IMG/VR virus record: IMGVR_UViG_3300023047_000002
Strand: one strand, 5' to 3'
Length of the DNA: 64,000 nt
Source of the DNA: a virus
Lineage: Duplodnaviria > Caudoviricetes
Shown one piece after another: positions 878 to 56,545 of this stretch. Positions within the stretch are counted from its first letter, which is position 1. Each line of letters begins with the position of its first letter. The notes beneath the pieces are model-generated. The model was not told the DNA's origin. It did no database searches and saw only the letters and a list, made by a program, of their open reading frames with translations. The translations under genes were made by a program, and so were the position numbers.

Positions 878-1369
878 ATGGCACTAATATGGAAAAAGAA
901 ACGAATGATACGGTCTGAAAGGATTCATCGAATCATCGAGATGGCTCTTAAAAAAGCTAAATACCAAGATCGTGTCGCTGATTTGCTGCCACAGATTGCA
1001 CAGAATTGGTGTCTTTGTACATATTGCCGAATGTACGACCCAGACAACATAAATTACCGTGGGTGGCGTAAAGAACTCATCGCTCATATAGGAATGCTTA
1101 AATCGATTCCTGTAAAAGGCGATAAGGAAAAATGGACACGAGATGAAGTCATAAATACAAGCGAGTATAACAATGTGGATGTAATTCGCTGTGTATGTGA
1201 CTTCAAACTTGACGATGAGGATGAAATTGACTTCACGCAATCAATAAGAAAAGATCTGTATCGTGATTGTGCAGAGAATGCAGAAACAATCGTGTCGCTT
1301 ATCTCAAGTGATTCGTTGCCCTCAGAAAAGCTCTATAAGATATTCCCACTTAAAACAGATCGATTCTGA
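878..1369 (+). CDS. Hypothetical protein, paralog of 1394..1903
   Basis: RBS GAGG; shares EMA..KxxYQxRVxxLxxQIAxNWCLCxYC with the next gene. Confidence 0.8.
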   Translation: MALIWKKKRMIRSERIHRIIEMALKKAKYQDRVADLLPQIAQNWCLCTYCRMYDPDNINYRGWRKELIAHIGMLKSIPVKGDKEKWTRDEVINTSEYNNVDVIRCVCDFKLDDEDEIDFTQSIRKDLYRDCAENAETIVSLISSDSLPSEKLYKIFPLKTDRF

Positions 1370-1393
1370 CAGAAAATGAGGTGAACATTAATT

Positions 1394-1903
1394 ATGATAC
1401 GCATAAGTCATGCAGTTAAAAAACAACGCTTTATTCTTGAGATGGCTTTTAACAAAAGTCAATTTCAGACACGTGTGTTAAACCTTGCAAAGCAGATTGC
1501 TGAAAACTGGTGTCTCTGTCAATATTGCCATAAATATGAAAAGACTTTTCCTACGTATGTCCACTGGAAAAGCGAGCTTGAAGGATATCTTGACGAGTTA
1601 AACACAATGTCCATTGACAATGATAGATCACGTGAGAAGTGGAGCCTTGAAATTCTCAGAAAGGGAGACTTTGATGACGCTCAAAAAGTTTTCCGACAAT
1701 GCAAAAGGAAATTCATGATAGAGCATGTGCTGAACATGCCAAAAAATTCGCAGATAGAAGTGTGTGATGACTTTGCCAACATGATTGAGGATATCTCAAA
1801 ATGTATCGGAAGCGTTGACGGCATTGTCCCGTTCACATGCAAATGGTTTCCTGAAGTGTTGACAACCTTCGACATCCGATGGAGATCCGAACACAAATAT
1901 TAA
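1394..1903 (+). CDS. Hypothetical protein, paralog of 878..1369
   Basis: RBS GAGGTG; QIAENWCLCQYC motif. Confidence 0.8.
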   Translation: MIRISHAVKKQRFILEMAFNKSQFQTRVLNLAKQIAENWCLCQYCHKYEKTFPTYVHWKSELEGYLDELNTMSIDNDRSREKWSLEILRKGDFDDAQKVFRQCKRKFMIEHVLNMPKNSQIEVCDDFANMIEDISKCIGSVDGIVPFTCKWFPEVLTTFDIRWRSEHKY

Positions 1904-1916
1904 AGGATGTGAATCA

Positions 1917-2525
1917 ATGGCACGACAAAATAAAACAATCAAACCTAATACAGAAGAGAAAAAGCAACAAGAGCAACAGGAACTTGAAGAGCTCAAGCTC
2001 AGAATGGATAAGATGAAAGCCGAAGAAGAGCGACTAAAAGCAAACACGGTTCCAACGGCTGAGTATCTTGAAAACATTCGCAAAACGCATAAAGACCCGT
2101 ATTGGATGTCGTATGAAGTGGTACAGATAAAGCTCGGATCACCCATACAGACGATTTTCACTAGCGAACATTACTACGAGGCATTCGACGTTTTCAAGGA
2201 ATACTTCGAGAAAGATAAACACGCCAGAATGGATTTGGTCGTTCGTGAGGTACGTGATGGCACACCTATTTTCAGAACAATCGTAGCTGAATTTGAGGTA
2301 GCGGGAGCACATGGGGATGTGACATCTGATGGAAGACAAACACTTTCATCGTTTGCTAGTCCGACCGATTATGGACGTTTTGGCCCTAGTGTGTACAATC
2401 AAACGTACAAAGATGCTAAATGGGCAGGATATGAGGCATACTCTCGCCCCCTAAAGACTTTCAGTTATGGAGATTGTAGCAGTGGTTTTGACCAGAAAAG
2501 CGAGCCGAAAGCCCACCCGCTTTAG
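1917..2525 (+). CDS. Hypothetical protein; stop codon lies inside an IS605-like hairpin
   Basis: 202-aa ORF with N-terminal coiled coil. Confidence 0.7.
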   Translation: MARQNKTIKPNTEEKKQQEQQELEELKLRMDKMKAEEERLKANTVPTAEYLENIRKTHKDPYWMSYEVVQIKLGSPIQTIFTSEHYYEAFDVFKEYFEKDKHARMDLVVREVRDGTPIFRTIVAEFEVAGAHGDVTSDGRQTLSSFASPTDYGRFGPSVYNQTYKDAKWAGYEAYSRPLKTFSYGDCSSGFDQKSEPKAHPL

Positions 2526-10255: not shown

Positions 10256-11260
10256 TTAAAATGTGTGTATTTCAAGGGGAGTTATCATCTCACGCAATTC
10301 TTCACCTTGAGTGATAGCATTAATGTATTTGTCCCCAAATTGCCTTAGCAGTTTTAAGCACAAATCCAAACATTTTATTACATCATTTGGAAATTCGTTT
10401 ATGTCATCTTCATAAAAAGCATTACCAATAGATTCAATGTAATTTTTGGATGTTTTCACAAGGTCAACAGAACTATTTGTAGTCTGCTCCAAGACACGTG
10501 TTAAAACTTTAGTGACACTCTTTTGAGTGTGTGAGTTCAAATCGATTTCATCAGGGAAAACGTTTGCATATTTTTGAAAGTCTGAATAGCTCATGGAGAC
10601 ACCAAGAATGTCTAAAACTGAGGTGTTCACTCTATCGAACAAGTCTTGATTCTTAAATCCATATATCACCTTTCGGTGCTTCGTTGTGTCTTCAAGACCT
10701 ATCTGCCTAAAATAATGAACACCGTCTTCGTCAAGTTCAAGTTGATCATGTTTATTTAAAATTTCTTCTGCATAAATATTTGGGATTGGATATCCGTTAT
10801 ATTTTTTCATCAAATATTCAACTTTGCCACTGACTTCTGCCCAATACCATCCTTCATAGTTTTTGATATCGTATCGGATCAGGGCTCTAGCGAACTCACC
10901 AGAACCCTTTATGTCCATATTTTTAGCGAGTGCAATGTTTTTATAACTACCATCTACAATTCGGAACACTTCTAATGCCATTATATCATTCTGGTGATTA
11001 GAAAGCTCAGACTCTTCGTAAGTGGTTGATGTGATTACCCTAAGTAATTTAGCACTTTTTAGAAACTTTTTTGGGTTGCTTGTTCCCAAATAACCACCAA
11101 TTGACGCATAAGCCTTTTCAATAATATCACGCATTTTAACGAAAAATGTTTCAACATCTGGCGGTGTAATATCATAGATTGCACAAATTTCCCATTGCAC
11201 ATGACTTATGGATTCCCCATAAGTCGAAGTGTGATGTCTGTTTTTTCTAATCAGTGCCAT
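10256..11260 (-). CDS. Hypothetical AT-rich protein with basic N-terminal tag
   Basis: GAGG RBS; MALIRKNRHHTSTYGES; WAEVSGKVE..GYPIPN..HYFRQIG motif. Confidence 0.8.
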   Translation of the reverse strand: MALIRKNRHHTSTYGESISHVQWEICAIYDITPPDVETFFVKMRDIIEKAYASIGGYLGTSNPKKFLKSAKLLRVITSTTYEESELSNHQNDIMALEVFRIVDGSYKNIALAKNMDIKGSGEFARALIRYDIKNYEGWYWAEVSGKVEYLMKKYNGYPIPNIYAEEILNKHDQLELDEDGVHYFRQIGLEDTTKHRKVIYGFKNQDLFDRVNTSVLDILGVSMSYSDFQKYANVFPDEIDLNSHTQKSVTKVLTRVLEQTTNSSVDLVKTSKNYIESIGNAFYEDDINEFPNDVIKCLDLCLKLLRQFGDKYINAITQGEELREMITPLEIHTF

Positions 11261-11560: not shown

Positions 11561-11941
11561 GTGTTGATTATGCGAAAACGTGATCGTTCAAACGCTTTTG
11601 AAATGACAACTTTGAGAAAAGCACGTTCTGGCTTGCCGGTAAACATATACCTGGACGACAGTGGATCTTATCTTAATTGTGATTATGAACCTAGAATCCA
11701 ATTTCAACCAAATAAAGGAAACTGTCCGGACATTCGTTCTCTGATACCTATGACAATTTCAGACGAACCTACTATTCCGATAAAGAATTATCAGTCACGG
11801 TTAAATGGTGTTGGAAGTAATGACATCTCTTTGATTATGTCATTCGTCATTGCAAACAAAACAAATCTTCTCAGATTATGTGACCGTAATGATGAATACG
11901 ATATCTCCAATTTTTTGGATGACATGGTTAAAGTCTCGTGA
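11561..11941 (+). CDS. Hypothetical protein (EM..L....SGLP.NI pattern, possibly DUF4160-related)
   Basis: 126-aa ORF with basic N-terminal tag; its TGA stop lies in the palindrome arm. Confidence 0.7.
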   Translation: MLIMRKRDRSNAFEMTTLRKARSGLPVNIYLDDSGSYLNCDYEPRIQFQPNKGNCPDIRSLIPMTISDEPTIPIKNYQSRLNGVGSNDISLIMSFVIANKTNLLRLCDRNDEYDISNFLDDMVKVS

Positions 11942-11998: not shown

Positions 11999-12982
11999 AT
12001 GTTTCGTTCATTTGAATCAGTTAAAATTGATGATCCTGTACTTGAACTTGAATGGGAAGACCTGTCATTGATTGGCGGAGCTACTGGTCTTGCCCTAAGT
12101 CTTAAAAACAGTCTTTCGAAGTTCCTAAGAAATTATGGAGAACACGACATTCTTGAAGACTTATATCATGCAGTGGCGCTTGGTCTTAGTAATCTCCAAG
12201 AAATCGGTATGTTTGACGGTTTTTTGTCAAATCCTAATATTGAGTTTCGTGGAAAGACTAATATTTCCATACAGAATAAACTTGATAGACATCACATACA
12301 TTCAGCAGGTCGTCCTCTTGAAAAGGTCTTTAACGACTTGATTGGTATTAGAATTATCGTAGAAGATTATTCAGTATGGGAATCTGTAAAACATAAGTTT
12401 GATTCATCGGTGTGTACTGTCGTTGACATGAGATGCGGAAAGTTCCCTGATGATGGTTACAGAGCTGTTCACGTTTACTTCCAAGCTGATCACTTGCATT
12501 ATCCTGTTGAACTTCAATTCGTGTCTGAGCATGACAGTCAGTTCAACGCATGGCAACACGACCATGCATATAAGTCATCATGGTTTGCTCCTTCTGTAGG
12601 AAAGAAATTGCGTGAGTTATACGATGACTGGAAAATTCAGACAGAGGATGAGTATGTGTCAGAGCTCACTAAACTGTCATCAATGGTTACGTACTCAGAA
12701 AAAAGGACGTGGGAAGGTACGAAACTTGTTGCGTGCAGATTCGGTATAAAGGGGTGTATAGGGTACATGCCTGAAACGATTCACGAGTTAATGTACCTTT
12801 ATCGTGAACTTTGTCCCTATTGTAGAAGACAGATTCCAACAGTCGATGTAACTGTCGTTAAGGGAGAGAGTTATGCTGAGTTTAGTCCATGTACGATCTA
12901 CGCTACCTATACTGATTTTTATGCGGCGATATTCCATGATTTGTTAAGAAAACCTGAACGGCACTCACGGTGTACACCATGA
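11999..12982 (+). CDS. RelA/SpoT-domain small alarmone synthetase
   Basis: ATG 11999 with GAGGTG RBS; synthetase motifs RGK..S..K, NDLIGIRII, GYRAVH, PVELQ. Confidence 0.8.
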   Translation: MFRSFESVKIDDPVLELEWEDLSLIGGATGLALSLKNSLSKFLRNYGEHDILEDLYHAVALGLSNLQEIGMFDGFLSNPNIEFRGKTNISIQNKLDRHHIHSAGRPLEKVFNDLIGIRIIVEDYSVWESVKHKFDSSVCTVVDMRCGKFPDDGYRAVHVYFQADHLHYPVELQFVSEHDSQFNAWQHDHAYKSSWFAPSVGKKLRELYDDWKIQTEDEYVSELTKLSSMVTYSEKRTWEGTKLVACRFGIKGCIGYMPETIHELMYLYRELCPYCRRQIPTVDVTVVKGESYAEFSPCTIYATYTDFYAAIFHDLLRKPERHSRCTP

Positions 12983-21985: not shown

Positions 21986-23116
21986 CTATTTCAGACGGTT
22001 GCGTCCGTTATACTTACCAGAAACACCAGGGCACATGCGTGTAAGTTTGACACCGTTTACATGAGCTTCAGTCATGACAGTCATCTGATGATTCTTAGCA
22101 TAAATGCGAATGTCGTTCGGATCTTCATTATTCGATTCCTGCGACAAAATGTCTGGGTTGACGTCCAACACATTTTCTTTCTTGGCATCTTTGTCAGAAT
22201 CACCTTCGATTTTATCCTCAGATTCCGAGAAATGGATATCATCACCGTCAGGAATAACCGAATTATCAGGAATCGCTTCTACAAGAGAGTTCAAATCAGG
22301 TACCTGAGTGTTGATTTCCTCTTCATCTTTCTTTCGTCTTTCAGGTGACTTTGACCACATCATAGCTTCACGAAAAGCACTCGTTGCACTCGAATCATCC
22401 GTGAAGTCTTCGAACTCTTTCGTTTTTGTGTAAATCTTTGCGAAAGGTTGGTCACCGCATTCAACGCAGACATCTACTCCTGCATTGTAAGCCTGCGCAC
22501 AAACTTTCATTGCATCCTGAAGCGAGTCAAATTCACCGCTGTACTTCTTACGTGTAGCTGAATGCTCACGAGTAATACACGACACCTTGTAAATAGGATG
22601 GTCATCTTCATTTGCCGATGCTTTGCAGATAGAAGAAACCTTGTGCACTTTCTCAGACTTCACTTTCATGCTTATAAGGCGAAGAGATTCAGACTTTCGT
22701 TTGCTGAGAAAGCAAATACGTGACGCTTTCATTGTGTCAGCATTAAGAGTGCCCTCGATACAAATAAGGCAACCTTTCTCAAGCGATTTGAGACAGCTCT
22801 CTGCAAGGTCACCTTTCGACACTTTAATGTGATAAGTTAAGACTTTTGTTTTATGGTCCTTATCAACAGTCGTGTTCATAACATCAAACATCAACGAACG
22901 CTTCATTTCGAGAGGGCTGCTGATACGACCGATGATGATGTCCTTTGTTCTTGCTTCGACAGCAAGGTCTTCCTCTGTTGCACCCATTGTTTTGCACAGA
23001 ATGTCGAACTCTTTTCGGTCTTCTGCTTCAACCAGAGAATCAGAAATCTCTGTTTTTTCATAACGCCGTACCGACATACGCTGCACACTATTTTTATGCT
23101 CTCGTTTAATAAGCAT
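21986..23116 (-). CDS. Hypothetical protein with SSB-like OB-fold segment and basic..Glu tags
   Basis: ATG 23116 with AGGAG RBS; IIIGRI..P.E and GDLAESCLKSLEKGCLICIEGTL resemble SSB. Confidence 0.6.
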   Translation of the reverse strand: MLIKREHKNSVQRMSVRRYEKTEISDSLVEAEDRKEFDILCKTMGATEEDLAVEARTKDIIIGRISSPLEMKRSLMFDVMNTTVDKDHKTKVLTYHIKVSKGDLAESCLKSLEKGCLICIEGTLNADTMKASRICFLSKRKSESLRLISMKVKSEKVHKVSSICKASANEDDHPIYKVSCITREHSATRKKYSGEFDSLQDAMKVCAQAYNAGVDVCVECGDQPFAKIYTKTKEFEDFTDDSSATSAFREAMMWSKSPERRKKDEEEINTQVPDLNSLVEAIPDNSVIPDGDDIHFSESEDKIEGDSDKDAKKENVLDVNPDILSQESNNEDPNDIRIYAKNHQMTVMTEAHVNGVKLTRMCPGVSGKYNGRNRLK

Positions 23117-26681: not shown

Positions 26682-27377
26682 TTAACAACGACGATAACGA
26701 CGTGTTCTCATCGTAGTTTTGCGTGATTCCTTGGCATCTTCTAAGGATTCTTCAAGGTTCTCAATAATGTCGTCAAGTTCGCCACAGACTGAGCTATAAA
26801 CATCATCAGCTTCGCCGGACACTTTGTCGTTGTAATACTCAACTTCCCACTGCAAATGTTTCACGCCAATAGCAAATACATTTTCAAAGTCTTCATCTGA
26901 ATTGATCACAGGAATGCCGTTGTCCAAAAACTGAACATCATCCTCGAATGAGAGGTCATCAAAAAGATCCGCAAAGGGAACTTCAATTTCATCAACACGA
27001 CCATGATCGTTCATGGCATAAGCAACGTCTTCGTCGAAATTGATGTCACGATATTCTTTTGCTTCATCCAGAGCTTCCTGAATAGCACTACGTGAGTTAT
27101 CTGCGGACATGAACGTATGACCTGTAACATCGCTAAGACGCAAAGATTCCGGATAAACCGTATGGAAAATCAGTGAGGTTTCCGTCACATCTTCGAGTTT
27201 CATGTAACCTTCATAAGGAAGTTCCTGACCGATACTGTCTCTTGTGGAAACATAGACTGAATCCCCGTCACTTGAACCACACTGGTCAAATGCTTCTGCC
27301 ACCATATCGTAAAAGTCGTCGCGGCCAATCTGCTTACGGCTTTCAAATTTACGTCTATTTCGTTGTTTCTTAATCAT
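26682..27377 (-). CDS. Acidic protein with basic N- and C-terminal tags (candidate internal head protein)
   Basis: MIKKQRNRRKFES... and ...AKESRKTTMRTRRYRRC. Confidence 0.75.
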   Translation of the reverse strand: MIKKQRNRRKFESRKQIGRDDFYDMVAEAFDQCGSSDGDSVYVSTRDSIGQELPYEGYMKLEDVTETSLIFHTVYPESLRLSDVTGHTFMSADNSRSAIQEALDEAKEYRDINFDEDVAYAMNDHGRVDEIEVPFADLFDDLSFEDDVQFLDNGIPVINSDEDFENVFAIGVKHLQWEVEYYNDKVSGEADDVYSSVCGELDDIIENLEESLEDAKESRKTTMRTRRYRRC

Positions 27378-29622: not shown

Positions 29623-30231
29623 CTATCGTTTACCATAGCGGCTTTCTTGCTTCTGACCAAACATCTCTCCAAACCATTCTTCCATATCAGAAGCATAACT
29701 GGAATAGAGATTACCATTGCCTTTCACTTTAGTACCTCGACATACTGCAATAACAGGGTATGCCTCATCATAAGTGAGTTGACCTCTGTAAGAGCTTGAG
29801 TCTTTGCACATTTTCCTTATGGCAACAGCAACAGGCGTGTCATGCCAGTACACGTAAAGACAATGCTGTATTACGTCTTTACGGTTTGAGCATGCCGAAG
29901 CATCCGTGTAATAAGTTTCAAGTGCAAACCTATGTTCCAGTGAAGACTTTCCGAACAATCGTTCCAAAACTTCGAACAAAGCATCCCACACATCGGTACG
30001 TTTTTTGTCGTTAAGGCACCCGAAAGCGGCCATGGCGTACATATAATCATAAGCATCTAAACCGAGAAGGTTCTCTTCCAACCATTCAGAAAACTCCTGA
30101 ACTGATTTGTCACGGAACTTCCATGCGAGCTTCACCAGATACTTAAAATTCTTAAAGTCCGTAGCATTTAAGTAAGAAGCACCTAACGATTCCTTACGAA
30201 TCAAAGATTTTCTCTTGTATGTAATAAGCAT
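29623..30231 (-). CDS. Hypothetical protein with basic terminal tags
   Basis: AGGAG RBS; MLITYKRKSLIRKES... and ...KQESRYGKR. Confidence 0.75.
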   Translation of the reverse strand: MLITYKRKSLIRKESLGASYLNATDFKNFKYLVKLAWKFRDKSVQEFSEWLEENLLGLDAYDYMYAMAAFGCLNDKKRTDVWDALFEVLERLFGKSSLEHRFALETYYTDASACSNRKDVIQHCLYVYWHDTPVAVAIRKMCKDSSSYRGQLTYDEAYPVIAVCRGTKVKGNGNLYSSYASDMEEWFGEMFGQKQESRYGKR

Positions 30232-30837: not shown

Positions 30838-31254
30838 TGATCGTTCATATTTACGTGTTCTACTGCGAACAAATCTGGATTCCAAAGCACATTCAGAACC
30901 GCAACCGACGAGATCAGTCACTTTATCCAGAAGGTCACGTGACGTCCAACGAACCTTGCCGATAAGAACGTAGTCACCGCCCTCATCCTGTGGAGCAGCA
31001 AAGCATTTCGCCCAAACATTGTCGATTTCTACTTCACAGAACAACCCGTCCATGTAGTCGTCATCCGACGTGTTTCTTACAGTAACATACCCATAAGATT
31101 CATGTGGGATGACTTCCCATTTGTCGCCATCGGAGAAACTGTCAACGATGTTCAATGCCTGACAGATGTCCTGTGCCACATCAAGACGCCACTTAGCATC
31201 TTGTGCTTCTGATTCCTTACAAAAAACTCTATTTTTTAAGACCGGTTTTAACAT
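30790..31254 (-). CDS. Hypothetical protein with basic terminal tags
   Basis: AGGAGGA RBS; MLKPVLKNRVFCKES... and ...ALESRFVRSRTRKYER. Confidence 0.75.
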   Translation of the reverse strand: MLKPVLKNRVFCKESEAQDAKWRLDVAQDICQALNIVDSFSDGDKWEVIPHESYGYVTVRNTSDDDYMDGLFCEVEIDNVWAKCFAAPQDEGGDYVLIGKVRWTSRDLLDKVTDLVGCGSECALESRFVRSRTRKYERSSAMVSIQLRRKLSLV

Positions 31255-32189: not shown

Positions 32190-35100
32190 TTAACGCTTTT
32201 CCCAAGGTAATCTTAAACTGTTTTGAAGATATCCAGGGAATCCATCTATGGCATCAATCACATTGAGCCACAAATCACGCAAATCTTTGAACAGACCTTC
32301 AAGATCAGAATCAAGATGTAAAGAGTCCGCAAGGAGATCTATCTGCTCAAGGTCTAAATCAAACATGGCCTCAACAGTACCATCTATACGCTCAACTTCC
32401 TCATACATCTCTTCAAAGTCCTGCATCGACACTTTTCCACGACCTTTGAGAAGATCCAAATACGTTGGAAGTGACGAATCATCGTTAATCTCGAAAGAAG
32501 CATCACCATAACCTAACCGTGAAGCATCGCAGGAATATTGTTTTTCATTAAAAGAATCCTCAATCTGGTCAAGACAATCAAGAATATCTGACGCATAGAA
32601 CGCCAGTTCTTCATTATCTTTCTTGTTATCCTGAACCCAATCACGGCAATTGCGAATACTCGACTCAATGTAGTAAGGCATCTCACTTCCCTTTCCACCA
32701 CGATTCGAATTGTCACGGATAAAGATAGCAACAGGGTCATCCACGATAGAATCATCAAATCGCTTAAAAGCATCGAACAAGTCTTCCATATCATCACGCA
32801 GTTCTTTCTTCTCAGACGGAGTAAGGAACTGACGGCGAGATGTGGTGTGCTTTTTAATATATCGCATGTCGCGAAGAAGCTGCTGAATGTAATTGTCATT
32901 CAACTTTACCCACCCATCTGCACAACGCTCTCTGAAAGCATTTACATCAGAAGCAGTTATCTCTTCCTCAATGGTAGGGAGACCATTCATGTTTACCCAT
33001 TCAAGCAACTCCTGAATAGGATAATCTTCATATTTGCTGTATATCATTGCTTCATTACGTCCTTTACTGTTCCTGTTACGTAAATATTTACGTGTACGGC
33101 TCTCGAACACGTTCACATTAACCATATTACGAATACTTGCTGAATCGTCAATATCTATTCCATCAACAAGGTCAATGCACTCACCGAATGCAGCACAAGC
33201 ACAACGTATAAGGAATTTTAACCCTTCCACTTGTTTGTCTGCATCGACTTCACGGCACATCGCAGTCGCATTATACACGTTATCAACGAGAGAACATCCA
33301 TAAGCACGACCACGGGTTTTTACCAAGCCTGAGAACACACGGTCAATATGCTCTCCGAGTTTCTTGCGACCCACACTCTGAACACCATTAACCTGTCCAA
33401 GACTTACGGATACACAGAACGGAATGAGGTCATGTTTTGCCTGTGGGTCATCAAGACTGCCAATATACGGCGCGGCGATTTTAATGCTTAATGAACAACT
33501 CCAATCAGGTGCGTTCGCTCCACGTCCGCTGACATTGTAACTTACTTTTCCGCCACGCAATGGTTTTCCGCTCTTTCCGATTTCAGGTTCACGTCGTGCA
33601 AATCCACCGAACGACACAGATATACCACCATAAACAGCGTGTTCAGTGTCGAATCCGTAATCCTCACGTGAGGGATCACCCATCCAAGCATCCGCAAAAT
33701 TTCTTCCTGTTGCTTTAGAACCTTTACCTTGGAAATCAGACTGAATGGCAATAATCATATCAGTCGCATCCTGTTTATTCAGGGCTTCCTCACGGCCAAC
33801 AACCTTAGTCGATCCTTGACCACCGGTCACCTCAGTAAGAGTTGAGATGTACGCATTTGCTTCTTGCTCAGCTATTGCACGGTAAGAAGACTGTTCCCAT
33901 TCAAGCCGCTTTCCAGGTCCGCCTGTTCTTGCACGTTTTCCAGTTTCAGGGTCTTTTGGAGAATCGCCCGTAATACGTGCTGCGGCATCGTGTTTGGAAG
34001 GATCGTCCAAAAGGTCATCAAAGTCCATTCCGTGAGCGTGCGATCCTACGCCATGCTCAAGTTCTTTTGTATCGATGTCACCAAACACAACAGGAAGAAT
34101 ATCTGCCAGTTCAGGATTATCACGAAGAATAGACAGACGAACCGAATCGGCAGTATCGTTATCATTCAGAGGGTGTAAAATCTCAAGAAGCTCTTCCTGA
34201 GAAATAACATCGTTCTTAACAGCTGCAATCATCAGCTTCTTGAGATTACCCATTGCTACACGCTTGTTCGAGAAGTCAGTAACGATGAGTGAATCAGAAT
34301 CCTTTGGCTGTGCAACATCCGTACTGCTTACATGCGATTTCCAATCATCACCATACTGAGCTTTCAATGTGGCGAGACGTTGTTTCGATGTAGATGACGG
34401 TTTAAGATTGCTTTTACGAGGAACTTGTCCTGTCTTCAGGAATCGAACATAGATCTTAATTTCTTCAATGAGAGGGATGTTTCCTTTCTGGTCAGGCATG
34501 ATACTGATACCGTAAACACGACGGTCAACAAGTACCTGATTACCGTTATCATCAACGTCATAGATTTCTTCAACGTCTCCGTCATTAAATCCCTCTAACG
34601 TCTTACGCAGATGACGCACTCTTGTTTTGCGTTCATGTACGCCGAGCTGATCAGCGATTTTTACAAAAACGGATGGGCGTATGTGTTTTGCAACCACTTT
34701 TTCGCCTTTGTCTGTTATGCAGAACAGACCGCTTTTGTCGATACCGATCTGGACGTAATGATCAATACCAAAGTTAGATCTGCCCATCACATCAATATAG
34801 CATTGTCCGTAGCTGCGAACAAATTTGCAAAGACCCATAAGCGTTGCATCACCGGCACTTTCGCATTTACGAATAGTTCCGGTCTTAACGGCACACTCAC
34901 GTCTTCCACGTCCTCCGTCAATTTGGTTCAATGCTTTAGTAATGAAATTCTTTGTCGAATCACTGACTTTCCAGTCTGACATTCGTGGACTCTGCATCTC
35001 AAAGAAACCTAAGTTTCCTCCACGACCATTAAAAGTGTCCGCAATAGCAACACGCATCGTTACAGACCACATACCCGTATTGAGTGCATCACGAACTGTC

Positions 35101-42164: not shown

Positions 42165-43622
42165 CTAATAACCCTTGATTTCACCACGAACGAGGAGTTC
42201 AGGACGGAGCATCTTATAAGCCCACATACTGATGAAGCCTGATTCGACAGTGAACGTATTTCTAGTCAACCAGTCTGTATGCATGATCGGTAAGTAGTCT
42301 GCGAGCAGTGCACAACTGTTCTCTAATATACTCTTATGACCAACTAAGTACTCGTTTTCACGAATATAAGGTGAACAAATAATCTTGAGTGAGTTATCAA
42401 GAACACCTGCAACGTAAGGACCGTTAGGATTCTCAACATAGTTCGGTTCGAAACGAGGACGACCAATGTTCATAAGAACGTTGAGACCTTCAATACCGAC
42501 AACCGCCCAGTTACCACGGAATTTGTAGCTCTTCTGGTAAATCTTGTTGGCACATTTCTGAAGCTCACCGCAGAAGCTCTCATCGTGTTCACGCTGTGAA
42601 ATGTAATTCGTGTTGGTGCGATCCCACATTGTGCGGTTACCGGCCTGACGCAGAAGGTTGTCAATAACCTCATTGTCACGTTCCTGTTTCATTTCCATTG
42701 TGCAGTTGTCAATAAGGGTCTTCTGAAGGTCAATACCGAAGCTGTTCTGATACATGTAACCTGCATCGAACGAATACTCAACACGGAGTTTGTGAGGAAG
42801 AGCATGAATCGGTTCGTTTCTCATACGGAACACAGGGCGACCAGCCAAAGAAGGAGCAGAACCCAAATCCTGAGTGTAATCAACGAACACACTTGAGAGT
42901 TTGGAAAAAGCATCATTCTCGGATGCAAACATCACAAGACCGCTGTCCGGATTAACTTCGAGGGTACCGGCCTTGAGAAGGTCACTACCGATAGGATAAC
43001 CCTGAGCGTCCAAAGCACGAAGTTCCCATGTGCTCGTGCCTGTTTTGCGAAGTGCATAACGTTTGCTCGAATCACCTGCATCAGTGAAGATAATCTGATT
43101 GTCAGCATCAATGAGCATAGGCATATGTGCAACATGCAATTCGACTTTTCCGCCCACGATCGTAGCGGGTTCACCACAGATACGACCAGAAGCAAAACGG
43201 TTGCGACTTGTGTGATTGACGGAAACGCCAAGGTCGTTAATCATCACGTTGCCCTGGAGATTGTCACCACGGCTGTCACCATAGGTCATTTCCCAGAAAG
43301 TAATCTGACCCTGAGGACTGTCGATAGGCTGCACCCAAATAAGGTCTTCAATAATCGAGGAAGCACTCATCTTGGCAATCATGTTAATCATGTGTTCGGG
43401 GAACCAAGAAATTCCGGACGGCTGAGAAATACCGCTGCGGATGATTCCTTCGTTCACACGTTTCTGACCCTCTTCAAGAACGCGGGCGGCGTTGTTGAAT
43501 GTCAAAAGAAGGGTGTCTTCCTGTGCCGAGGTAAGTTTACCACGAACATCAGTGACTTTCTTAACGTAGGATTCATAATTGCGTTTGAGAATGTTACGAT
43601 CTTCTTTAGTCAAAACTGCCAT
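42165..43622 (-). CDS. Major capsid protein (T4 gp23-like)
   Basis: VQPIDSPQGQI, HKLRVEYSFD, E...ERDNEVI, GNWAV, GP..AGVL, YLVGHK, YLP motifs; follows the protease gene. Confidence 0.92.
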   Translation of the reverse strand: MAVLTKEDRNILKRNYESYVKKVTDVRGKLTSAQEDTLLLTFNNAARVLEEGQKRVNEGIIRSGISQPSGISWFPEHMINMIAKMSASSIIEDLIWVQPIDSPQGQITFWEMTYGDSRGDNLQGNVMINDLGVSVNHTSRNRFASGRICGEPATIVGGKVELHVAHMPMLIDADNQIIFTDAGDSSKRYALRKTGTSTWELRALDAQGYPIGSDLLKAGTLEVNPDSGLVMFASENDAFSKLSSVFVDYTQDLGSAPSLAGRPVFRMRNEPIHALPHKLRVEYSFDAGYMYQNSFGIDLQKTLIDNCTMEMKQERDNEVIDNLLRQAGNRTMWDRTNTNYISQREHDESFCGELQKCANKIYQKSYKFRGNWAVVGIEGLNVLMNIGRPRFEPNYVENPNGPYVAGVLDNSLKIICSPYIRENEYLVGHKSILENSCALLADYLPIMHTDWLTRNTFTVESGFISMWAYKMLRPELLVRGEIKGY

Positions 43623-43635: not shown

Positions 43636-45165
43636 TCATTTCCCTTTACCGGTAAGGAACACCCCTCGGGCAGGGGCTATTTCGTGAACATCACGCTCAA
43701 AGTTAGATATACTGCGAACACGTCTTTCGTAAGACTTGCCGTTTCCTTTAGTTACTGCATTGTTATCAGCAAGCTCCGTAAGTCGGTCAGCGTCTATTCT
43801 GTATCGTTTCGATAGACGCTGTGTTGTTTCTTGAATGCAATCTTTACCTTCATCAGACATAAGGTCGCTTACGGGCACACGATGACTTTGTTTTTTATTG
43901 TTTACAGCTTCCGTCTTCATCTGTTTATGGTCAAAACGGGTACGTCGAATCTTGCCCGTCGATACCGATTCTACAGCTTCGTCAGTCTTCTTAACTGAAA
44001 CTTTCTGTAAAGAAGACTCACTTACACGTTTTACGATACACTGTGAACGCTTGTAAAGAGAATCAAGTTTACGTGCAAGAGACTCTGCTTTACATGCAAG
44101 CTCTGAATACCGTTCAAGGTAATGTGCCTGATAAATGTCTCTCTCAATACCGGAACGCAAACTTTCGTTACTACGCTTCAAGAACGCTTCATTTGCCTGT
44201 AAAGTTTCAACCTTTTCAGTGAGCGTCTCAATGGTTTCACGATAAGCATCAATATCCTGCTCCATACGGGCAATACGCATACCGTCCGTTTCCTTCTCAG
44301 ACGCGTGAGAGACAGACTCAAAGGCTTTACATGAACCAGAAGCATCCGTAGCTTTATCAGACGAAGACATAATAGCATCAATGCTGAGCTTTTTCGTGTT
44401 ATGGTTTGTTTCATCCTTGCGGTTCAGCGTAAGTGCGTTCACACCATTACTCTTACGGATAACAGAGTTTACTGCATCATCTGTACGTTTTTCAAGTTCC
44501 TGTGCCATATCACGCATACGGCTTTCAAAAGCAGGAATCTTTAATGCGGACAATGCCGCAACATTGCTTCTAAGCTCGCTTGTCGTCATAGACTCAAGCG
44601 ATTTGCTTTCCTGTACCTTTTCAAGGTGTGCGCACTTAAACCCAGGGTCTGGAACTGCATCGAACGTGATTAAGTCGTACTCAGTTTCCGACATCACTTC
44701 CGTATTGCCTTCCATTTTACTTTCTGCAAGAGCACGTGCTGAAATACCGATTTTGCTGCCGTAATCAATAAGCGTTTTAAGAATACGCCCTACCGGCGTG
44801 TCAAGAATAGCGAATCTTCCAAAAACGAGATGGTCGCTGTTCTCTGGGATCCAGATACGTTCCACAGACAAAGCAACCTCAGGGTATGCGATGTCAACAC
44901 GTGTCTCCGGATGTCCACCCTCGCCAAGCATACACTTATTCTTAATGGCCTCTTTGACCGGCGGATAATTGATTATCCTGTCCTCGATCAGCTTTCGGGA
45001 GTAGATGCGGTTGTTTTGGTTGACTTTTCCGAATTCCATGCAAGGCCCTTCCACGATGCATAAAGCATTGGAAGATTTGCCGGAACCCTTCTCGTCAACA
45101 CGCCGCATTTCACTCACGAGCGATTCCGTGACAAGACGTTTTGCTTGTGTTGTCTGTACTGGCAT
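43636..45165 (-). CDS. Prohead core protease (gp21-like, peptidase S77/U9) fused to a coiled-coil scaffold
   Basis: NQNNRIY, LGEGGHP, ILDTPVGRI, GISARA, FDAVPDPGF, then ~320 aa of coiled coil. Confidence 0.92.
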   Translation of the reverse strand: MPVQTTQAKRLVTESLVSEMRRVDEKGSGKSSNALCIVEGPCMEFGKVNQNNRIYSRKLIEDRIINYPPVKEAIKNKCMLGEGGHPETRVDIAYPEVALSVERIWIPENSDHLVFGRFAILDTPVGRILKTLIDYGSKIGISARALAESKMEGNTEVMSETEYDLITFDAVPDPGFKCAHLEKVQESKSLESMTTSELRSNVAALSALKIPAFESRMRDMAQELEKRTDDAVNSVIRKSNGVNALTLNRKDETNHNTKKLSIDAIMSSSDKATDASGSCKAFESVSHASEKETDGMRIARMEQDIDAYRETIETLTEKVETLQANEAFLKRSNESLRSGIERDIYQAHYLERYSELACKAESLARKLDSLYKRSQCIVKRVSESSLQKVSVKKTDEAVESVSTGKIRRTRFDHKQMKTEAVNNKKQSHRVPVSDLMSDEGKDCIQETTQRLSKRYRIDADRLTELADNNAVTKGNGKSYERRVRSISNFERDVHEIAPARGVFLTGKGK

Positions 45166-47051: not shown

Positions 47052-47052
47052 T

Positions 47053-49799: not shown

Positions 49800-49840
49800 T
49801 GGTGCTGTTTTAGAACACTGATAAACGCTTGTGGTATGAA
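49800..49840 (+). promoter_or_regulatory. TGGTGCTG-box promoter upstream of 49884
   Basis: TGGTGCTG, 27 nt, then TG-g-TATGAA. Confidence 0.7.
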
Positions 49841-49883
49841 CGTATGAGGGATTAAACGCTTATTAAAGAAAGGATCTTGGGGT

Positions 49884-50153: not shown

Positions 50154-50185
50154 AAGGAAACGTATATAGACAGAAGGAACAAACA

Positions 50186-51370: not shown

Positions 51371-52543
51371 CTAAAAACCGAGTGCCCCATTAATGTCGTG
51401 GAAATTCCATTTTCCGTTCCACATGTCGAATGTCCAGTCACGACTCGAAAGGGCACATCCTGTGTAGCTCTTGATTGGTTGTGCATGAGCACCTTTTTCC
51501 GAACCAGGCTTAGAAGGATCAGGAACAAACAGAGGCTCGCTTACACCTGGAACGAGTTTTCCGGATGAGCTTTTACCGATAGATGAAAGAACAACACGTC
51601 CTCCACGGAAACCCGTCACTTTAAAGTATGCTTTTCTTCCCCAACAATTACCGACAAACAAGTCACCGACTTTAAGACGCGACACGAACTGATCTTTCGA
51701 ACAATGCTCAGGATCAACCTCCGCATAACGCTGAGCGGCTTCATCGTCAGCAACATCAGCCATGCTTGCTTCGTTACGACGTACACGACGCATTCTACGT
51801 GACTCTTTTTTGCCTTTACCGAGCTGTGCATCAACAAGACCGATAATACCCTCACCCAGTTTGTCGAACTCAGGCTTATCAACGTCTACACTGACGATTT
51901 TCTTGTTTCCACTGTCGTCTTTAAGGGCTGCCTTGTCGTTTGAATAATCCAACTGAACGGTAACGCTTTCGTCTTCACCGTTTTTCGGGAACACTGTAAC
52001 GACAGCGGTTCCGTTATCTGTAACTGTGATTTCGACCTGACCGCCATCATAGTACTTTGTCAGCATTGCATCTACGGCTTTCATAGTGTCCGTGAAACCA
52101 CCTTCATAATCGGTACGTACAGACTCACGGCGTGTGCGACGTTTTACACTTCTTCCTTCATCGACATACTGAGGTTCGAGCCACTGAAGTCCTGGAACAA
52201 CCCGATCTGCGTCAGGCATTTCACCCATGTCGAACTTTTCACCGGGAAGGAAGCTGCCATCCTCCTGCTCAACCATAAGCTGCTGCGACATGAAACCGCC
52301 ATCCTTGTAAGTTTTGGCGTAAATAACGCAGGTCGTGCCTTCATCGACTTCTGTAACTTCCATATAGCCCATATCGTTAAGCCAGATATAGACATAGACA
52401 CCTTGTTCTGCCATTCCTTTTTCGAGTTCTTCTGCAAACGAATACCACAAGTTGTGTGTATCATCTGCAATGGATTCGTTTTTAAGAACACGTTTATTAC
52501 GTTCATTAATTCGTTTGAATCGGTCACGATTAAAAAGAGTCAT
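51371..52543 (-). CDS. Three-domain protein with basic..Glu linkers (candidate head polyprotein)
   Basis: KRINERNKRVLKNES; VDEGRSVKRRTRRES; KKESRRMRRVRRNEA. Confidence 0.8.
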   Translation of the reverse strand: MTLFNRDRFKRINERNKRVLKNESIADDTHNLWYSFAEELEKGMAEQGVYVYIWLNDMGYMEVTEVDEGTTCVIYAKTYKDGGFMSQQLMVEQEDGSFLPGEKFDMGEMPDADRVVPGLQWLEPQYVDEGRSVKRRTRRESVRTDYEGGFTDTMKAVDAMLTKYYDGGQVEITVTDNGTAVVTVFPKNGEDESVTVQLDYSNDKAALKDDSGNKKIVSVDVDKPEFDKLGEGIIGLVDAQLGKGKKESRRMRRVRRNEASMADVADDEAAQRYAEVDPEHCSKDQFVSRLKVGDLFVGNCWGRKAYFKVTGFRGGRVVLSSIGKSSSGKLVPGVSEPLFVPDPSKPGSEKGAHAQPIKSYTGCALSSRDWTFDMWNGKWNFHDINGALGF

Positions 52544-52558
52544 AGGAAACCTCCTTAA

Positions 52559-54277
52559 TTACATGGTACGGAAAATGTCACTGATGATACTGTCAGCAAG
52601 TTCGGAAACACTGTTAAATTCAGCCACGTCATAAACTCCCATCATCTGATGAGTATCAGCATACCGAACCTCAACACGGTCCCAAATATCAATCTCGAAT
52701 TTCAAGTAATTACGTATCGTCAAGATACCACGATGTGCTGTCAACATCTTGTAGGAGCATGTGTACATGGAATTTATACCATGCTGTCGTTTATTTCGTT
52801 TAAACGCATCAACGAGAGCCGGCATGAGTTCCTCGTATTCAATACAGTTAGCTTCGTATTTTCTTCTGTAAGAACGAACGCTTCTTGACTCTTTTTTGCC
52901 CTTCTCAAGCAATGACTTTTTACTGTTCAAGTACGCTTTCACATCAGCTGCAGGAGACTGAGTATCTTCAACAATCTGAACGTCATCATAGACATCGAAC
53001 AAAGACACATGATTGCCGTGAACGCTTACACGGATGCACAGGATTTCTTCATCGCTGTGCCCGTTTGTGTAAGCATACGAACCAAACAGGATATAGTTAT
53101 GTGACTTGGTTTCGATATCAACCTTTGCGCACATGTTAAACGGAACTTTGAACCCAAAGAAGTCCTCCATAATGACGCTTGAGTTCAAGAAATCGAGCAT
53201 CACCTGTTTAATGTCGCTTATGGTTGAATTGGTATCCATGATACGTTCATTCGCACTGGTTTTCAGAGACGGACGAAGTTTGCGAAGTTCGTTCTTTCCA
53301 AACACAAGTGAATATTTTTCAAGTCTACGCTTGGATGTTCTACGTTTTGACTCGCCAGTAACGGTATCATACAACGAATCGTAGTCAATCTCATCTTCAG
53401 ACATACCATAATCGTCACGTGTCATTGGATTGAAGTCAAGGTTTTCATCAGGACGCTCGCACATGTAATCGACAGCAACAGATTCCCACAGGCGAGACCA
53501 CATGTCTTCAGCATGATTGCGTGGATGACACCATTCACGTAACTGCAATGTGATTACAGAAATCATATCCTTCAATGACATTTCACGAGACACTGTAACA
53601 ATGCCGTCAGAAGTAAGACCAAACTTTGGCAATTTCTTTGTCAAAGCATTGACCTTTGGGTCTTGCCAGTTAAAAGGAACAAGACCCGGTGATGTAATTT
53701 TCAGTTTTGAAAAAACAGTGTAATATTCTGCATTGTCATTTGCTCCAAGGGATTCAAGCATGGCAGAAATGGACAATTCTCTAACAGTTCCGTTATCTGC
53801 AATGGTGAACTCACGAACATCGACAGTCTCATCATTGCGACCAGTTCCCGGAGTGACATCCACACGAATTTCATCAAAGATGTCAGACATGCGGGCGTCA
53901 TCGTCATCTTTAAAGAAATTCGAGCAAACGATTTCAATGTCTTCTGCTGTTACATCAATGTGAGAAGCCAAAAGCTCCATGGCATCTTCACGGGTAGAGT
54001 TCGGATTGTCAGACAGAACAATCAGAGTTGGGTATAAAGGAATATTCCCATCCTGCTGCAAACGCATAAAGACAAACGTGAAATGACTTCCCAACACGTT
54101 TGAAATGTCTTCCTGCGTGCCTTTCGATACCTGTTCCAACGTCTGACGTGAAGGATAAAACACATCCCATCCATCACGAAGAAGAACGGTAGCGATTGCT
54201 TTTGCTGTCATCCAGTAGGTGCCAATATGGCTTTCGTACCGTTTGTTTACACGATTATATTTGTTTAATCTTATCAT
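52559..54277 (-). CDS. Multidomain protein with basic..Glu linkers (candidate head polyprotein)
   Basis: ATG 54277 with GGAG RBS; NRVNKRYES; GESKRRTSKRRLEK; KKESRSVRSYRRKYEA. Confidence 0.8.
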   Translation of the reverse strand: MIRLNKYNRVNKRYESHIGTYWMTAKAIATVLLRDGWDVFYPSRQTLEQVSKGTQEDISNVLGSHFTFVFMRLQQDGNIPLYPTLIVLSDNPNSTREDAMELLASHIDVTAEDIEIVCSNFFKDDDDARMSDIFDEIRVDVTPGTGRNDETVDVREFTIADNGTVRELSISAMLESLGANDNAEYYTVFSKLKITSPGLVPFNWQDPKVNALTKKLPKFGLTSDGIVTVSREMSLKDMISVITLQLREWCHPRNHAEDMWSRLWESVAVDYMCERPDENLDFNPMTRDDYGMSEDEIDYDSLYDTVTGESKRRTSKRRLEKYSLVFGKNELRKLRPSLKTSANERIMDTNSTISDIKQVMLDFLNSSVIMEDFFGFKVPFNMCAKVDIETKSHNYILFGSYAYTNGHSDEEILCIRVSVHGNHVSLFDVYDDVQIVEDTQSPAADVKAYLNSKKSLLEKGKKESRSVRSYRRKYEANCIEYEELMPALVDAFKRNKRQHGINSMYTCSYKMLTAHRGILTIRNYLKFEIDIWDRVEVRYADTHQMMGVYDVAEFNSVSELADSIISDIFRTM

Positions 54278-54338
54278 AACACGACAACTCCAAAAAGGTA
54301 AGAGACACAAGCCTGAGAAGTTCGATATACAATAGCTT

Positions 54339-55469
54339 TTAATCTTCAGAACGGACAGGTAGTAAAGGACCACCCTGAGTGTACCCGATAAGCAGTCCGC
54401 CACCTACATGAACCATACTGTTATTGTTGTACCATGTTCCGATAGGTCTGTGATTCGGCGTAGTCATAACAAATCGCTTGGTATCCAGGTAACCCTTTAA
54501 CGTATCGCCCCACATAATTCTGTATGTGTAAGGGTCAGATTCCTCTTCAGAATACCCTGCGAACACAGCGATACGGGCAAATCTGTCTTTACCTAAGACA
54601 GCAGGGATATACGTCTTTAAACTCAGATAATGAGAATCGATATGAAGATGACAAGGAACCCACACGCTCATGTTATTGTTTGCGTTCATGCACGCTGCAT
54701 ATGCAACACCGGGTTTTGTATGCAATGGAAAAGCAAAGTCCTCATCAGAACCTATGCCACAGTCATCAATAGGAGGATAATTCTCATCAGCATCAAGACT
54801 CAGACGGACCGCCAGATACCTTGAACAGTATGATGTATCTCGGTCAGGGTAAAGAAGTTCTCCCATAAGCGAACCACATGCGAACCCCCTAAGATGATCT
54901 TCATCGGACATCTTATGTGAAAAACCATATACCGTGTAACCATCCGAAACAACAATGTAGGAGTAATATTCGTCAGTTCGATTGATGTCTAAAAAAGACT
55001 TAACCATTCTATTACGTGCACCAACAGTTCCGACAAAAGGAGTACTTTGAAAAGGCTTTTTGAGTCCCGTCACATTACCATCATCGTCACGTAGGAACTC
55101 AAATTTTTCTGAACTCGTCGGAGGCACAACAGAACACATAAGACCGCCAGCATATTGACCTGGATGTGTCTGCCCGCACTCATCCTTACCGACCGATGCA
55201 GGGAGACAAAAAGTCATGAACGACTCAGGGACAGCAGAGACATTCATGGCAAAGCACGCTTTCAAACCAGAATCATGCACAAGCAGAATATAGACAATCT
55301 CAGGAAGAACCGCCAATGATTCATCCCAAGTACCTACAAGATTCCACCCATGGTCAATAAGAGATAAAGCAACTCCTGTTAGTACACCACGTGCACCATC
55401 CATATCCGATGTAAAAGTTCCGCCACGGAAAGAATATTCTGAACGCTGAAAAATGCCTACATCTGCCAT
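54339..55469 (-). CDS. Hypothetical protein, possibly structural
   Basis: 376-aa ORF. Confidence 0.7.
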   Translation of the reverse strand: MADVGIFQRSEYSFRGGTFTSDMDGARGVLTGVALSLIDHGWNLVGTWDESLAVLPEIVYILLVHDSGLKACFAMNVSAVPESFMTFCLPASVGKDECGQTHPGQYAGGLMCSVVPPTSSEKFEFLRDDDGNVTGLKKPFQSTPFVGTVGARNRMVKSFLDINRTDEYYSYIVVSDGYTVYGFSHKMSDEDHLRGFACGSLMGELLYPDRDTSYCSRYLAVRLSLDADENYPPIDDCGIGSDEDFAFPLHTKPGVAYAACMNANNNMSVWVPCHLHIDSHYLSLKTYIPAVLGKDRFARIAVFAGYSEEESDPYTYRIMWGDTLKGYLDTKRFVMTTPNHRPIGTWYNNNSMVHVGGGLLIGYTQGGPLLPVRSED

Positions 55470-55519
55470 AACACTACTCTTTTCTGATTACGTCTTACAC
55501 TGTTATAACAAAGTCTGAA

Positions 55520-56545
55520 TCAGTCTTCATCACGAAGCTGCTCAAGCGTCCACTCTTCAAGTATCTGGACAGGCTCGACAACCTTTCCATCAAGAAGGTA
55601 TGACATATCCTCATTCATGCACAAGTCCAAAAGACGTTTTACACCTTTTGATGCCCCATACTGACCGCTTGTGAATGGATCCGCAGTAGAAACGAATTTA
55701 CCTGCTACAGATTTATTTTTTAACGTATCCATAAAGTCTTCATAACCTGAGCCAACGGCGGCTGAGATAAAAGCGTCAGATGCTTTAACCAAAAGAAGGC
55801 GTGATTGGACTTTTGCTTTTGGGTCGTCATGCAGGAAATCCCAGGCATCCTGAAATCCAACCTGCGGTTTGTTAGTCCTAAAGAACCTAAGGTTCGTCAT
55901 GCTTTCATCAGCATCAATGTAGTAATAGCAAAACTCAGCCGACATGCGTGCAGTTTTAAACACAGGGAACATAGCTTTTTCGTGTTCTGCAAAACGTGTA
56001 ATACTCAAGTCATCAATTCCAACGCTTTTACGGTTTACGATATCGGCATTATCACGCCATCGTTTACCATGACCACCCTCACGATTGCTTTCAAGCACTT
56101 CACGTAAATCAGAGTACTGCATGAATGTCAGTGCATGACACATTTCATGTGCCAGCGTGTCACGTAAATCATGCAGTGAATTGAACACCGTATCTTTGCT
56201 AATTGTTATTCCAGTCGAAACAAATCCGATACGTTGATTTACCCATCCATTTTCACGAAGATGGGTCATCGCTGAAAACACAGGAAGATAGCTGAAACAT
56301 CCAAGCGTACCAATACCTATACTGTCATACTTTACCCATTCATCCTTCCAACCGTTAAGTCGGAAATACCCATCGAAATAAAGGTCATCTATATCGTGAA
56401 ACAGATCAACAAGAAACACATCAGTCTTCCAATTTTCCCGGTCGATACGGTTTTTTATACGTCCACGTTTAGGTGGATTTGACTGCTGTGTATCGTCAGA
56501 TTCGTTTCGTTTATTCCGTATTGAATTTCGTTTTCTGATAAGCAT
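55520..56545 (-). CDS. SprT-like zinc metalloprotease with basic N-terminal tag
   Basis: DTLAHEMCH..GHGKRW; MLIRKRNSIRNKRNES. Confidence 0.75.
   Translation of the reverse strand: MLIRKRNSIRNKRNESDDTQQSNPPKRGRIKNRIDRENWKTDVFLVDLFHDIDDLYFDGYFRLNGWKDEWVKYDSIGIGTLGCFSYLPVFSAMTHLRENGWVNQRIGFVSTGITISKDTVFNSLHDLRDTLAHEMCHALTFMQYSDLREVLESNREGGHGKRWRDNADIVNRKSVGIDDLSITRFAEHEKAMFPVFKTARMSAEFCYYYIDADESMTNLRFFRTNKPQVGFQDAWDFLHDDPKAKVQSRLLLVKASDAFISAAVGSGYEDFMDTLKNKSVAGKFVSTADPFTSGQYGASKGVKRLLDLCMNEDMSYLLDGKVVEPVQILEEWTLEQLRDED

Follow-up and report, generated by a model that had tools for sequence, protein, structure and literature searches.

Glutamate-bounded polybasic leaders and spacers as candidate substrates of the prohead protease in an uncultured jumbo-type myophage

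The 64-kb stretch of IMG/VR record IMGVR_UViG_3300023047_000002 analysed here (hereafter, the window) is a piece of an uncultured jumbo-type myophage of about 230 kb, many of whose late proteins carry short Arg/Lys-rich peptides bounded by glutamate, as N-terminal leaders (tags), as spacers between modules of longer proteins or as C-terminal tails. Our analyses lead us to propose that these peptides form the removable parts (propeptides and spacers) of precursors associated with the head and are cut out by the phage's own S77-family prohead protease, a reading to which we would give a probability of about 0.7. Cutting by the head protease is the well-supported part of this prediction, made from sequence; we also infer that the tagged proteins reside in the head. 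Whether the basic peptide would in addition direct its protein into the prohead core, like the capsid targeting sequence of T4, is a further step for which we would offer slightly less than even odds, and the ejection of these proteins as effectors, put forward in the original prediction, is likewise conjectural.

All of the 13 N-termini listed in the original prediction, together with its three tails and its capsid and scaffold sites, were recovered in place or immediately beside it (Table 1, in which genes are designated by g and their lower coordinate, save those at 878, 1394, 11570 and 11999, and a downward arrow marks a candidate cut). The leaders might be an artefact of miscalled starts that read 5' leaders in frame, helped by the usual Lys-rich N-termini and by chance: the motif was loosely defined when it was proposed, and three tags end in E↓M (878, 1394 and 11570), where the methionine is possibly the true start. 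Our genes come from a self-trained call with starts picked by ribosome-binding site (RBS), which in this window is of the GGAG type. The upstream ATGs of the tagged genes have such sites (for instance AAGGAGG at 31254 and 52543 and AGGAGG at 27377) whereas the in-frame Met codons downstream of them do not, which argues that the leaders are translated. The tags are moreover kept as peptide in relatives, they also occur in frame within long open reading frames (ORFs), and residues E21-M22 are conserved in more than 40 members of the 878 family that bear upstream leaders. The ribosome sites and the in-frame conservation rule out a start-codon artefact, and the artefactual explanation as a whole seems to us scarcely credible. 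When a strict rule was applied (Glu followed by S, A or G within the first 32 residues, with a net charge, K/R minus D/E, of at least 3 over the preceding 10), 8 of the 46 N-termini were retained, where random internal windows of the same proteins averaged 1.05 and did not exceed 4 (2000 draws), that is, an eight-fold excess. Seven of these eight belong to the minus-strand structural block, while the strict match at 49884 and one at 20407 are probably due to chance. The leaders at 11999 (MFRSFE↓S, net charge 0), 11570, 11260 and 23116 (Lys at P1', the residue following the cut) fall outside the rule. The initial figure of about 15 unrelated proteins is better read as 7 to 10 well-supported cases and a weaker remainder, and these are not all unrelated, since 878 and 1394 are paralogues; no sequence similarity was found among the other tagged proteins. 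Nine of the 13 tagged proteins are net acidic. Searches of Pfam and PHROGs with the cargo proteins gave almost no matches, the single cargo with a recognisable enzyme domain being a RelA_SpoT protein.

Relatives were gathered by scans that yielded five lineages and were compared over up to 40 kb per record: G002, a 98.6-kb fragment whose capsid protein is 96% identical to that of the window; L007 (JAEEGK010000061.1; 238 kb), with a protease 83% identical; G001 (227.6 kb), with capsid and protease 69% and 53% identical; and L012 and L013 (OCTW013423137.1; the L013 contig measures 252 kb), with a capsid 42% and a protease domain 64% identical. A protein search added one more lineage (P0039) for the g52559 family, while searches of IMG/VR with g27379 and g10256 returned nothing useful. 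When the basic runs of the window and its relatives are taken together, the residue at their right boundary is Glu rather than Asp in a ratio of 51:22 (background 48% Glu, p=2e-4) and that at their left boundary in a ratio of 49:17 (p=2e-5); Ser, Ala or Gly follows the right-boundary Glu in 25 of 51 cases (background 21%, p=6e-6), and all seven C-terminal basic tails are preceded by Glu. The same ratios are 20:9 (right) and 19:6 (left) in the window alone, and 18:5 and 19:5 in G001 alone. Across 61 different sites, P3 is R or K in 44 and P4 is R in 25, P2 is mostly K, N, F or Y, P1 is E, and P1' is S in 36, A in 15 and G in 10, so that the site rule may be approximated as R-[RK]-x-E↓S, not the L/I-x-E of T4. 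Similar spacers are written with different codons, from which we conclude that selection acts on the peptide, and a DNA-level repeat or recombination cassette is ruled out on the same ground.

An acidic neighbour is to be expected next to a basic run when modules are strongly acidic, as they are here, and the spacer of g52559 lies in a disordered stretch (residues 460-478) of its AlphaFold2 (AF2) model, which becomes confident from residue 479 (overall predicted local distance difference test score, pLDDT, of 47; too poor for judging portal identity). One might then consider the basic stretches as uncut functional linkers or arms, nucleic-acid-binding or merely flexible, with Glu boundaries that mirror the surroundings. 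We hold this to be improbable: Glu is preferred at the boundaries over the equally common Asp, small residues follow it at more than twice the background, homologues start with Met right at the junction, and the same motif stands in the capsid propeptide and the scaffold of a phage that encodes a protease of a Glu-specific family.

Orthologue comparison of six genes (g55520, g52559, g51371, g30790, g29623 and g27379) revealed that the junction is kept while the length and sequence of the tag vary, similarity between orthologues starting at the residue that follows the junction Glu. For g52559 three lineages share the junction E↓SH[TI]G..W behind tags of 15, 19 and 24 residues (MIRLNKYNRVNKRYE↓SH in the window, MYSRRLSNRNAKLMPRRYE↓SH and ..LKGLVKE↓SH in relatives). 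The tag of g55520 corresponds to MIKRIYE↓S in G001, and ..KRVLKNE↓SIADD of g51371 to ..SRKVE↓SVADD in the same relative. The counterparts of the g30790 tag are MLKRVLKNRVFCNE↓S in G002 and MIRPTNKRNSYTLKHE↓S in G001, that of g29623 is MLRTDKRNLLLRKE↓A (..LLRKE↓A) in G002, and the leader of g27379 ends in ..KKLRCE↓G in G002, the homologous domain of G001 being placed after an internal ..KSRRFE↓S. The tags share an M-[LI]-[IK]-R-K-like start. The product of g26682 (231 aa) is very acidic, with a net charge of -29, and bears both a basic leader and a basic tail; no homologue was found by searching G001 and G002, which suggests an accessory cargo gene. The trait seems to be specific to this clade, since it is nearly absent from Bacillus phage vB_BceM-HSE3, which by its capsid is the nearest of the named phages and whose proteins contain one possible tag (MKERLILERILNKRKSGE↓S) and in which polybasic tags were not seen otherwise.

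The same basic cassette is found inside g51371, g52559 and g32190 with Glu on both sides (E↓S-basic-E↓S/A), an arrangement that had escaped the original prediction. Each spacer begins after a Glu and ends with Glu plus a small residue, therefore two cuts would excise it. Both candidate sites of the g52559 spacer are conserved in G001, in L007 and in the P0039 lineage. In g30790 the spacer is followed by an aberrant tail of 17 residues, which we attribute to two downstream modules (about 670 nt) missing from the window, where the protein has 154 residues against 402 in G002 and 370 in G001. Likewise, the short tail of g29623 is best understood as the remnant of a spacer, since the orthologue of G002 runs on with KQE↓SHCITRKRSTE↓A and a second module. 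In G001, L007 and L012, true C-terminal tails of basic residues are again found behind Glu. The mirror-image tails previously noticed thus do exist, but as spacer remnants or recurring C-terminal tails preceded by Glu and not as a separate mirror code. Nor does the scheme of N-terminal zip codes hold as first drawn: the leaders are there, and the same cassettes at internal and C-terminal positions point rather to modular polyproteins with excisable spacers. As a separate observation, the G001 homologue (L005:4909-5868) of the acidic coiled-coil protein g30245 has a tandem duplicate of EE↓GRMIKFRTRNMVRE↓EEE, that is, basic spacers within poly-Glu.

Leaders and spacers change places among the relatives. 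The leader of g51371 is an internal linker in a 601-aa protein of L007 (aa 237, ..KKTKNE↓SIA), and the spacer of g32190 at aa 733-749 has as its counterpart in G001 the N-terminal leader MFRINRRICE↓S, with which a gene of its own begins; the upstream half of g32190 is there joined by ..KSRRFE↓S to a module like that of g27379. In L012, the initial Met of the homologue of module A of g51371 falls precisely on the junction. G001 has the modules of g51371 and g52559 spread otherwise, over three ORFs, and the tblastn segments break at the spacer of g51371 at aa 130-140 with a permuted module order. Three modules of g30790 are present in G002 and G001 and one in the window, and g29623 has a second module in G002. 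As read from these alignments, tags and spacers are interchangeable, and modules are permuted, fused, gained and lost at the spacers.

A suitable enzyme is encoded in the same block. The prohead protease is fused to a scaffold-like C-terminal region in one gene lying directly upstream of the capsid gene, and its product matches Pfam Peptidase_S77 (PF03420; E=5e-13, above the curated cut-off), that is, it is T4 gp21-like; the Pfam S80 match is weaker (E=3e-7), PHROG 207 (head maturation protease) matches with E=4e-37, and no match came from PDB sequences when they were searched with a profile of the protease alignment. Four candidate sites of this protein are invariant in three lineages: E14 closes the protease's own leader, E214 forms the junction of protease and scaffold, and E334 and E383 lie in the scaffold. 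The capsid propeptide has two candidate sites, at which G001 has DALE↓S and QANE↓S, and strong conservation begins after the second (aa 58); a cut is predicted here too. What had been claimed of protease sites thus stands as regards the Glu-ended basic peptides, the S77 protease and the kept junctions, the cutting itself being a prediction drawn from them.

Several leaders belong to genes outside the structural block. The protein encoded at 11999 matches Pfam RelA_SpoT (E=1e-8), is small alarmone synthetase-like and has an extra DUF6718-like C-terminal part. Its phage homologues begin with MLGKRRIE↓S, with MITQKKYNMFVE↓S or with a 33-residue leader ending in IVE↓S, followed by the same conserved start, whereas bacterial homologues of about 200 residues (one from Mogibacterium sp.) begin at the domain and have no leader. 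This supports the addition of a leader to a captured RelA/SpoT enzyme and suggests that a host-derived enzyme may have been turned into virion cargo; searches of G001 and G002 revealed no homologue. The phage family that includes the 878 and 1394 proteins is large and uncharacterised, with 206 clusters at E<=0.001. Its leaders range from 6 to more than 60 residues and close with [LIV]-x-E before a near-invariant M-A. With L, I or V at P3 in 44 of 55 members and E at P1 in 48 of 55, this family follows the classical T4 rule (L/I-x-E), and basic leaders are confined to the nearest relatives. The AF2 model of the 878 protein (pLDDT 93) consists of an all-helical domain with the leader as a separate helix; fold searches with it in PDB and BFVD found no significant match. 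The family also has an invariant W-C-x-C-x-x-C motif. Weaker candidates are g10256, whose leader recurs only in one relative of 93% identity, the distant homologues being without it, and the gene first placed at 11561, whose true start is probably the ATG at 11570.

Taken together, it seems reasonable to argue for the following scheme. Late proteins, mostly acidic, would be synthesised in one of two forms, a lone module behind an N-terminal leader or several modules in a row. Each joint would be an Arg/Lys-rich cassette of 6 to 25 residues running from just after one Glu to the next Glu plus Ser, Ala or Gly. In the prohead, the protease would cut behind these Glu residues, as it may do in the capsid propeptide and the scaffold, and the cuts would remove leaders, excise spacers by a double cut, clip C-terminal tails and set the individual modules free. 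Since each cassette is complete in itself, modules could be gained, lost or swapped between genes at the joints, and such exchange is seen among the relatives.

The peptides might be cut out in this manner and yet be no address labels at all, but only a recognition context for the protease, or freed polycations that remain in the head and neutralise the packaged DNA, as the mu and pVII peptides of adenovirus do, with the modules loading by themselves. Glu on both sides of the spacers would release free peptides of 10-17 residues with net charges of +4 to +7, K and R are concentrated at P3 and P4 as in a recognition rule, internal spacers and C-terminal tails fit N-terminal zip codes poorly, and the L012 homologue is wholly devoid of a tag. 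However, the short leaders of T4 suffice for loading and the cleaved peptides leave the head (PMC9026906, PMC5694885), the tags of the window reach far past P4, up to 25 residues, and their common start exceeds what a protease would need. We regard this explanation as unlikely. It is tempting to go further in the other direction and to picture the cassettes as a plug-in loading code that glues acidic modules and core proteins together electrostatically, the double-cut excision dissolving the core and leaving polycationic counter-ions for the DNA, while the leader, being portable, turns captured host genes (such as the RelA/SpoT-type nucleotide pyrophosphokinase) into injected cargo; this bolder picture is, in our opinion, doubtful.

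Several points weigh against the proposal that the peptides are propeptides and spacers removed by the head protease. Both the cleavage and the virion location are predictions from sequence for an uncultured clade. The specificity assumed has no experimental precedent, since P3 is basic and not L/I as in T4 or A/S/G as in phiKZ and SPN3US. The cargo modules match no known virion protein family in Pfam or PHROGs. Five tags (878, 1394, 11260, 11570 and 11999) are outside the structural block and that at 23116 lies between tail genes, positions from which packaging into the head is less expected. The invariant E-M-A of the 878 family, which includes E21, could be structural and not a cut site. 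Finally, counts across relatives are not fully independent, because orthologous sites are included.

Head proteases that cut after Glu are known, and what appears to be new here is that P3 and P4 are basic and that the cassette also serves modular precursors as a spacer that could be excised. The closest comparison is T4, whose gp21 cuts after L/I-x-E (PMC9026906) in IPI, IPII, IPIII, Alt, gp67, gp68, gp22, gp23 and gp24 (PMC9026906, PMC5694885), and whose leaders of 10-20 residues load unrelated internal proteins into the head, Alt being trimmed at both ends (PMC5694885). An Asp at P1 prevents processing in T4 but leaves loading intact (PMC9026906). The two systems share the S77 protease family and the Gp23 capsid family, short leaders ending in x-x-Glu that are portable between unrelated cargos, C-terminal sites (Alt in T4) and many scaffold sites, those of the window being read from the sequence. 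They differ in that the leaders of the window are strongly basic, with R/K at P3 and P4 in place of the L/I of T4 at P3, in that the cassette doubles as a Glu-bounded internal spacer of multi-module precursors, and in that the cargo modules are acidic, whereas the internal proteins of T4 are basic and its system is known from more than sequence. In phiKZ, 201phi2-1 and SPN3US (gp175/gp245, MEROPS S80), many head and ejection proteins lose propeptides after Glu (PMC10052503, PMC5694885); the S80 enzymes of phiKZ and SPN3US cut after A/S/G-x-E with Ser favoured at P1' (PMC10052503, PMC9026906), and more precisely after A-x-E, again with Ser preferred, in SPN3US (PMC10052503). The window resembles them by the Ser preferred at P1', by several predicted cuts per precursor and by a jumbo-sized genome. 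However, most propeptides of these phages are long (111-254 aa) and no basic character is ascribed to them, their P3 is Ala or a different small residue, no modular spacer architecture has been reported for them, and the protease of the window scores better as S77 than as S80. A full-text literature search of partial coverage found no paper tying arginine-rich propeptides to a prohead protease. An analogy, and only that, is offered by adenovirus pVII and pX (mu), from which the capsid-confined adenoviral protease frees short, very basic peptides inside the particle; this is an unrelated cysteine protease with a different motif, in a eukaryotic virus.

If both the cuts and the loading are true, this clade would hold a second, chemically different answer to the problem solved in T4 by capsid targeting, with one arginine-rich, Glu-bounded cassette that can serve at either end of a protein and between its modules. 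It would widen the known specificity range of gp21-type proteases and would account for how the internal proteins of jumbo phages come to form large repertoires that change quickly, through the shuffling of modules at joints open to cleavage. It would also provide a simple sequence rule to predict packaged proteins in uncultured phages and a compact tag to load foreign proteins into engineered capsids.

Table 1. Candidate leaders, spacers, tails and cut sites, and the structural genes of the window
Feature	Sequence or site	Coordinates	Strand	Remarks
Tag of g55520 (341 aa, 55520-56545)	MLIRKRNSIRNKRNE↓S	56501..56545	-	RBS GGGAG; strict-rule match
Tag of g52559 (572 aa, 52559-54277)	MIRLNKYNRVNKRYE↓S	54233..54277	-	
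Spacer of g52559, aa 464-475	KE↓SRSVRSYRRKYE↓A	52853..52888	-	divides a 448-aa from a 97-aa module
Tag of g51371 (390 aa, 51371-52543)	MTLFNRDRFKRINERNKRVLKNE↓S (..KRVLKNE↓SIADD)	52475..52543	-	
Spacer of g51371, aa 130-140	DE↓GRSVKRRTRRE↓S	52124..52156	-	
Spacer of g51371, aa 248-258	KE↓SRRMRRVRRNE↓A	51770..51802	-	
Spacer of g32190 (1035 aa, 32190-35297), aa 733-749	FE↓SRTRKYLRNRNSKGRNE↓A	33051..33101	-	
Second spacer of g32190	HE↓RKTRVRHLRKTLE↓G	34593-34631	-	
Tag of g30790 (30790-31254)	MLKPVLKNRVFCKE↓S	31213..31254	-	RBS AAGGAGG
Spacer of g30790	LE↓SRFVRSRTRKYE↓R	30844..30879	-	followed by a short aberrant tail
Tag of g29623 (29623-30231)	MLITYKRKSLIRKE↓S (..LIRKE↓S)	30190..30231	-	RBS AGGAG
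C-terminal tail of g29623	KQE↓SRYGKR-stop	29626..29643	-	
Leader of g27379 (27379-28002)	MVKE..KTSGKRRCE↓G	27919..28002	-	
Tag of g26682 (26682-27377)	MIKKQRNRRKFE↓S	27342..27377	-	RBS AGGAGG; strict-rule match
C-terminal tail of g26682	AKE↓SRKTTMRTRRYRRC-stop	26685..26726	-	
Weak candidate leader, 21986-23116	MLIKREHKNSVQRMSVRRYE↓K	23057..23116	-	RBS GGAG
Leader of RelA/SpoT-family protein (11999-12982)	MFRSFE↓S	11999..12016	+	
Leader of 878-1369	MALIWKKKRMIRSERIHRIIE↓MA	878..940	+	
Leader of paralogue 1394-1903	MIRISHAVKKQRFILE↓MA	1394-1441	+	
Candidate leader of g10256 (10256-11260), weak	MALIRKNRHHTSTYGE↓S	11213..11260	-	RBS GAGGT
Candidate leader of 11570-11941, weak	MRKRDRSNAFE↓M	11570..11602	+	sequence only; poor RBS
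Prohead protease (aa 1-~214) and scaffold-like region, one fused gene		43636..45165	-	structural module
Candidate self-site of protease-scaffold	E14↓S (LVTE↓S)	45124-45165	-	
Candidate self-site of protease-scaffold	PAFE214↓S	44524-44547	-	
Candidate scaffold site	KRSNE334↓S	44164-44181	-	
Candidate scaffold site	KRVSE383↓S	44017-44034	-	
Major capsid protein		42165..43622	-	structural module; Pfam Gp23 E=1e-24, match from aa 76
Capsid propeptide	candidate sites KRNYE17↓S, KRVNE58↓G	43449-43622	-	
Head-tail adaptor		35303-35989	-	structural module
Tail sheath		23253-26219	-	structural module
Tail tube		21369-21965	-	structural module

The weak candidate at 23116 belongs to the gene between sheath and tube, and its P2 residue is changed to D in G002. 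The minus-strand structural module is broken up by two islands of plus-strand genes, at 28440-29582, with a weak endolysin-like PHROG match, and at 46785-51289, which contains the paralogues 46785-47051 and 49884-50153. A search at the DNA level among deposited phages found no near match to the window, and the nearest named phages reach a capsid identity of no more than about 25%.

A minus-strand gene (45270-46619; 449 aa) with no family match adjoins the protease gene on its upstream side. Its product is 87% identical to that of G001, the flanking protease and capsid being 53% and 69% identical, and neither G002 nor L007 has the gene at this place. It may have been transferred recently or be mobile, and an identity as the portal is not obvious. 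The stretch immediately downstream of the capsid gene, 38987-41946 (minus strand), comprises two partly paralogous HNH/homing-endonuclease genes (590 and 380 aa), and the same position is occupied by an 831-aa version in L013 and a 325-aa one in L007. Lastly, a 23-nt motif, TAGACCCCTTTAYGGACGTGTTT, occurs on the minus strand at 20213-20235 and 31973-31995 (two copies, with 0 expected by chance), each copy being closely followed by a long minus-strand gene (16411-20178 and 31229-31957), and is possibly a late promoter or regulatory element.

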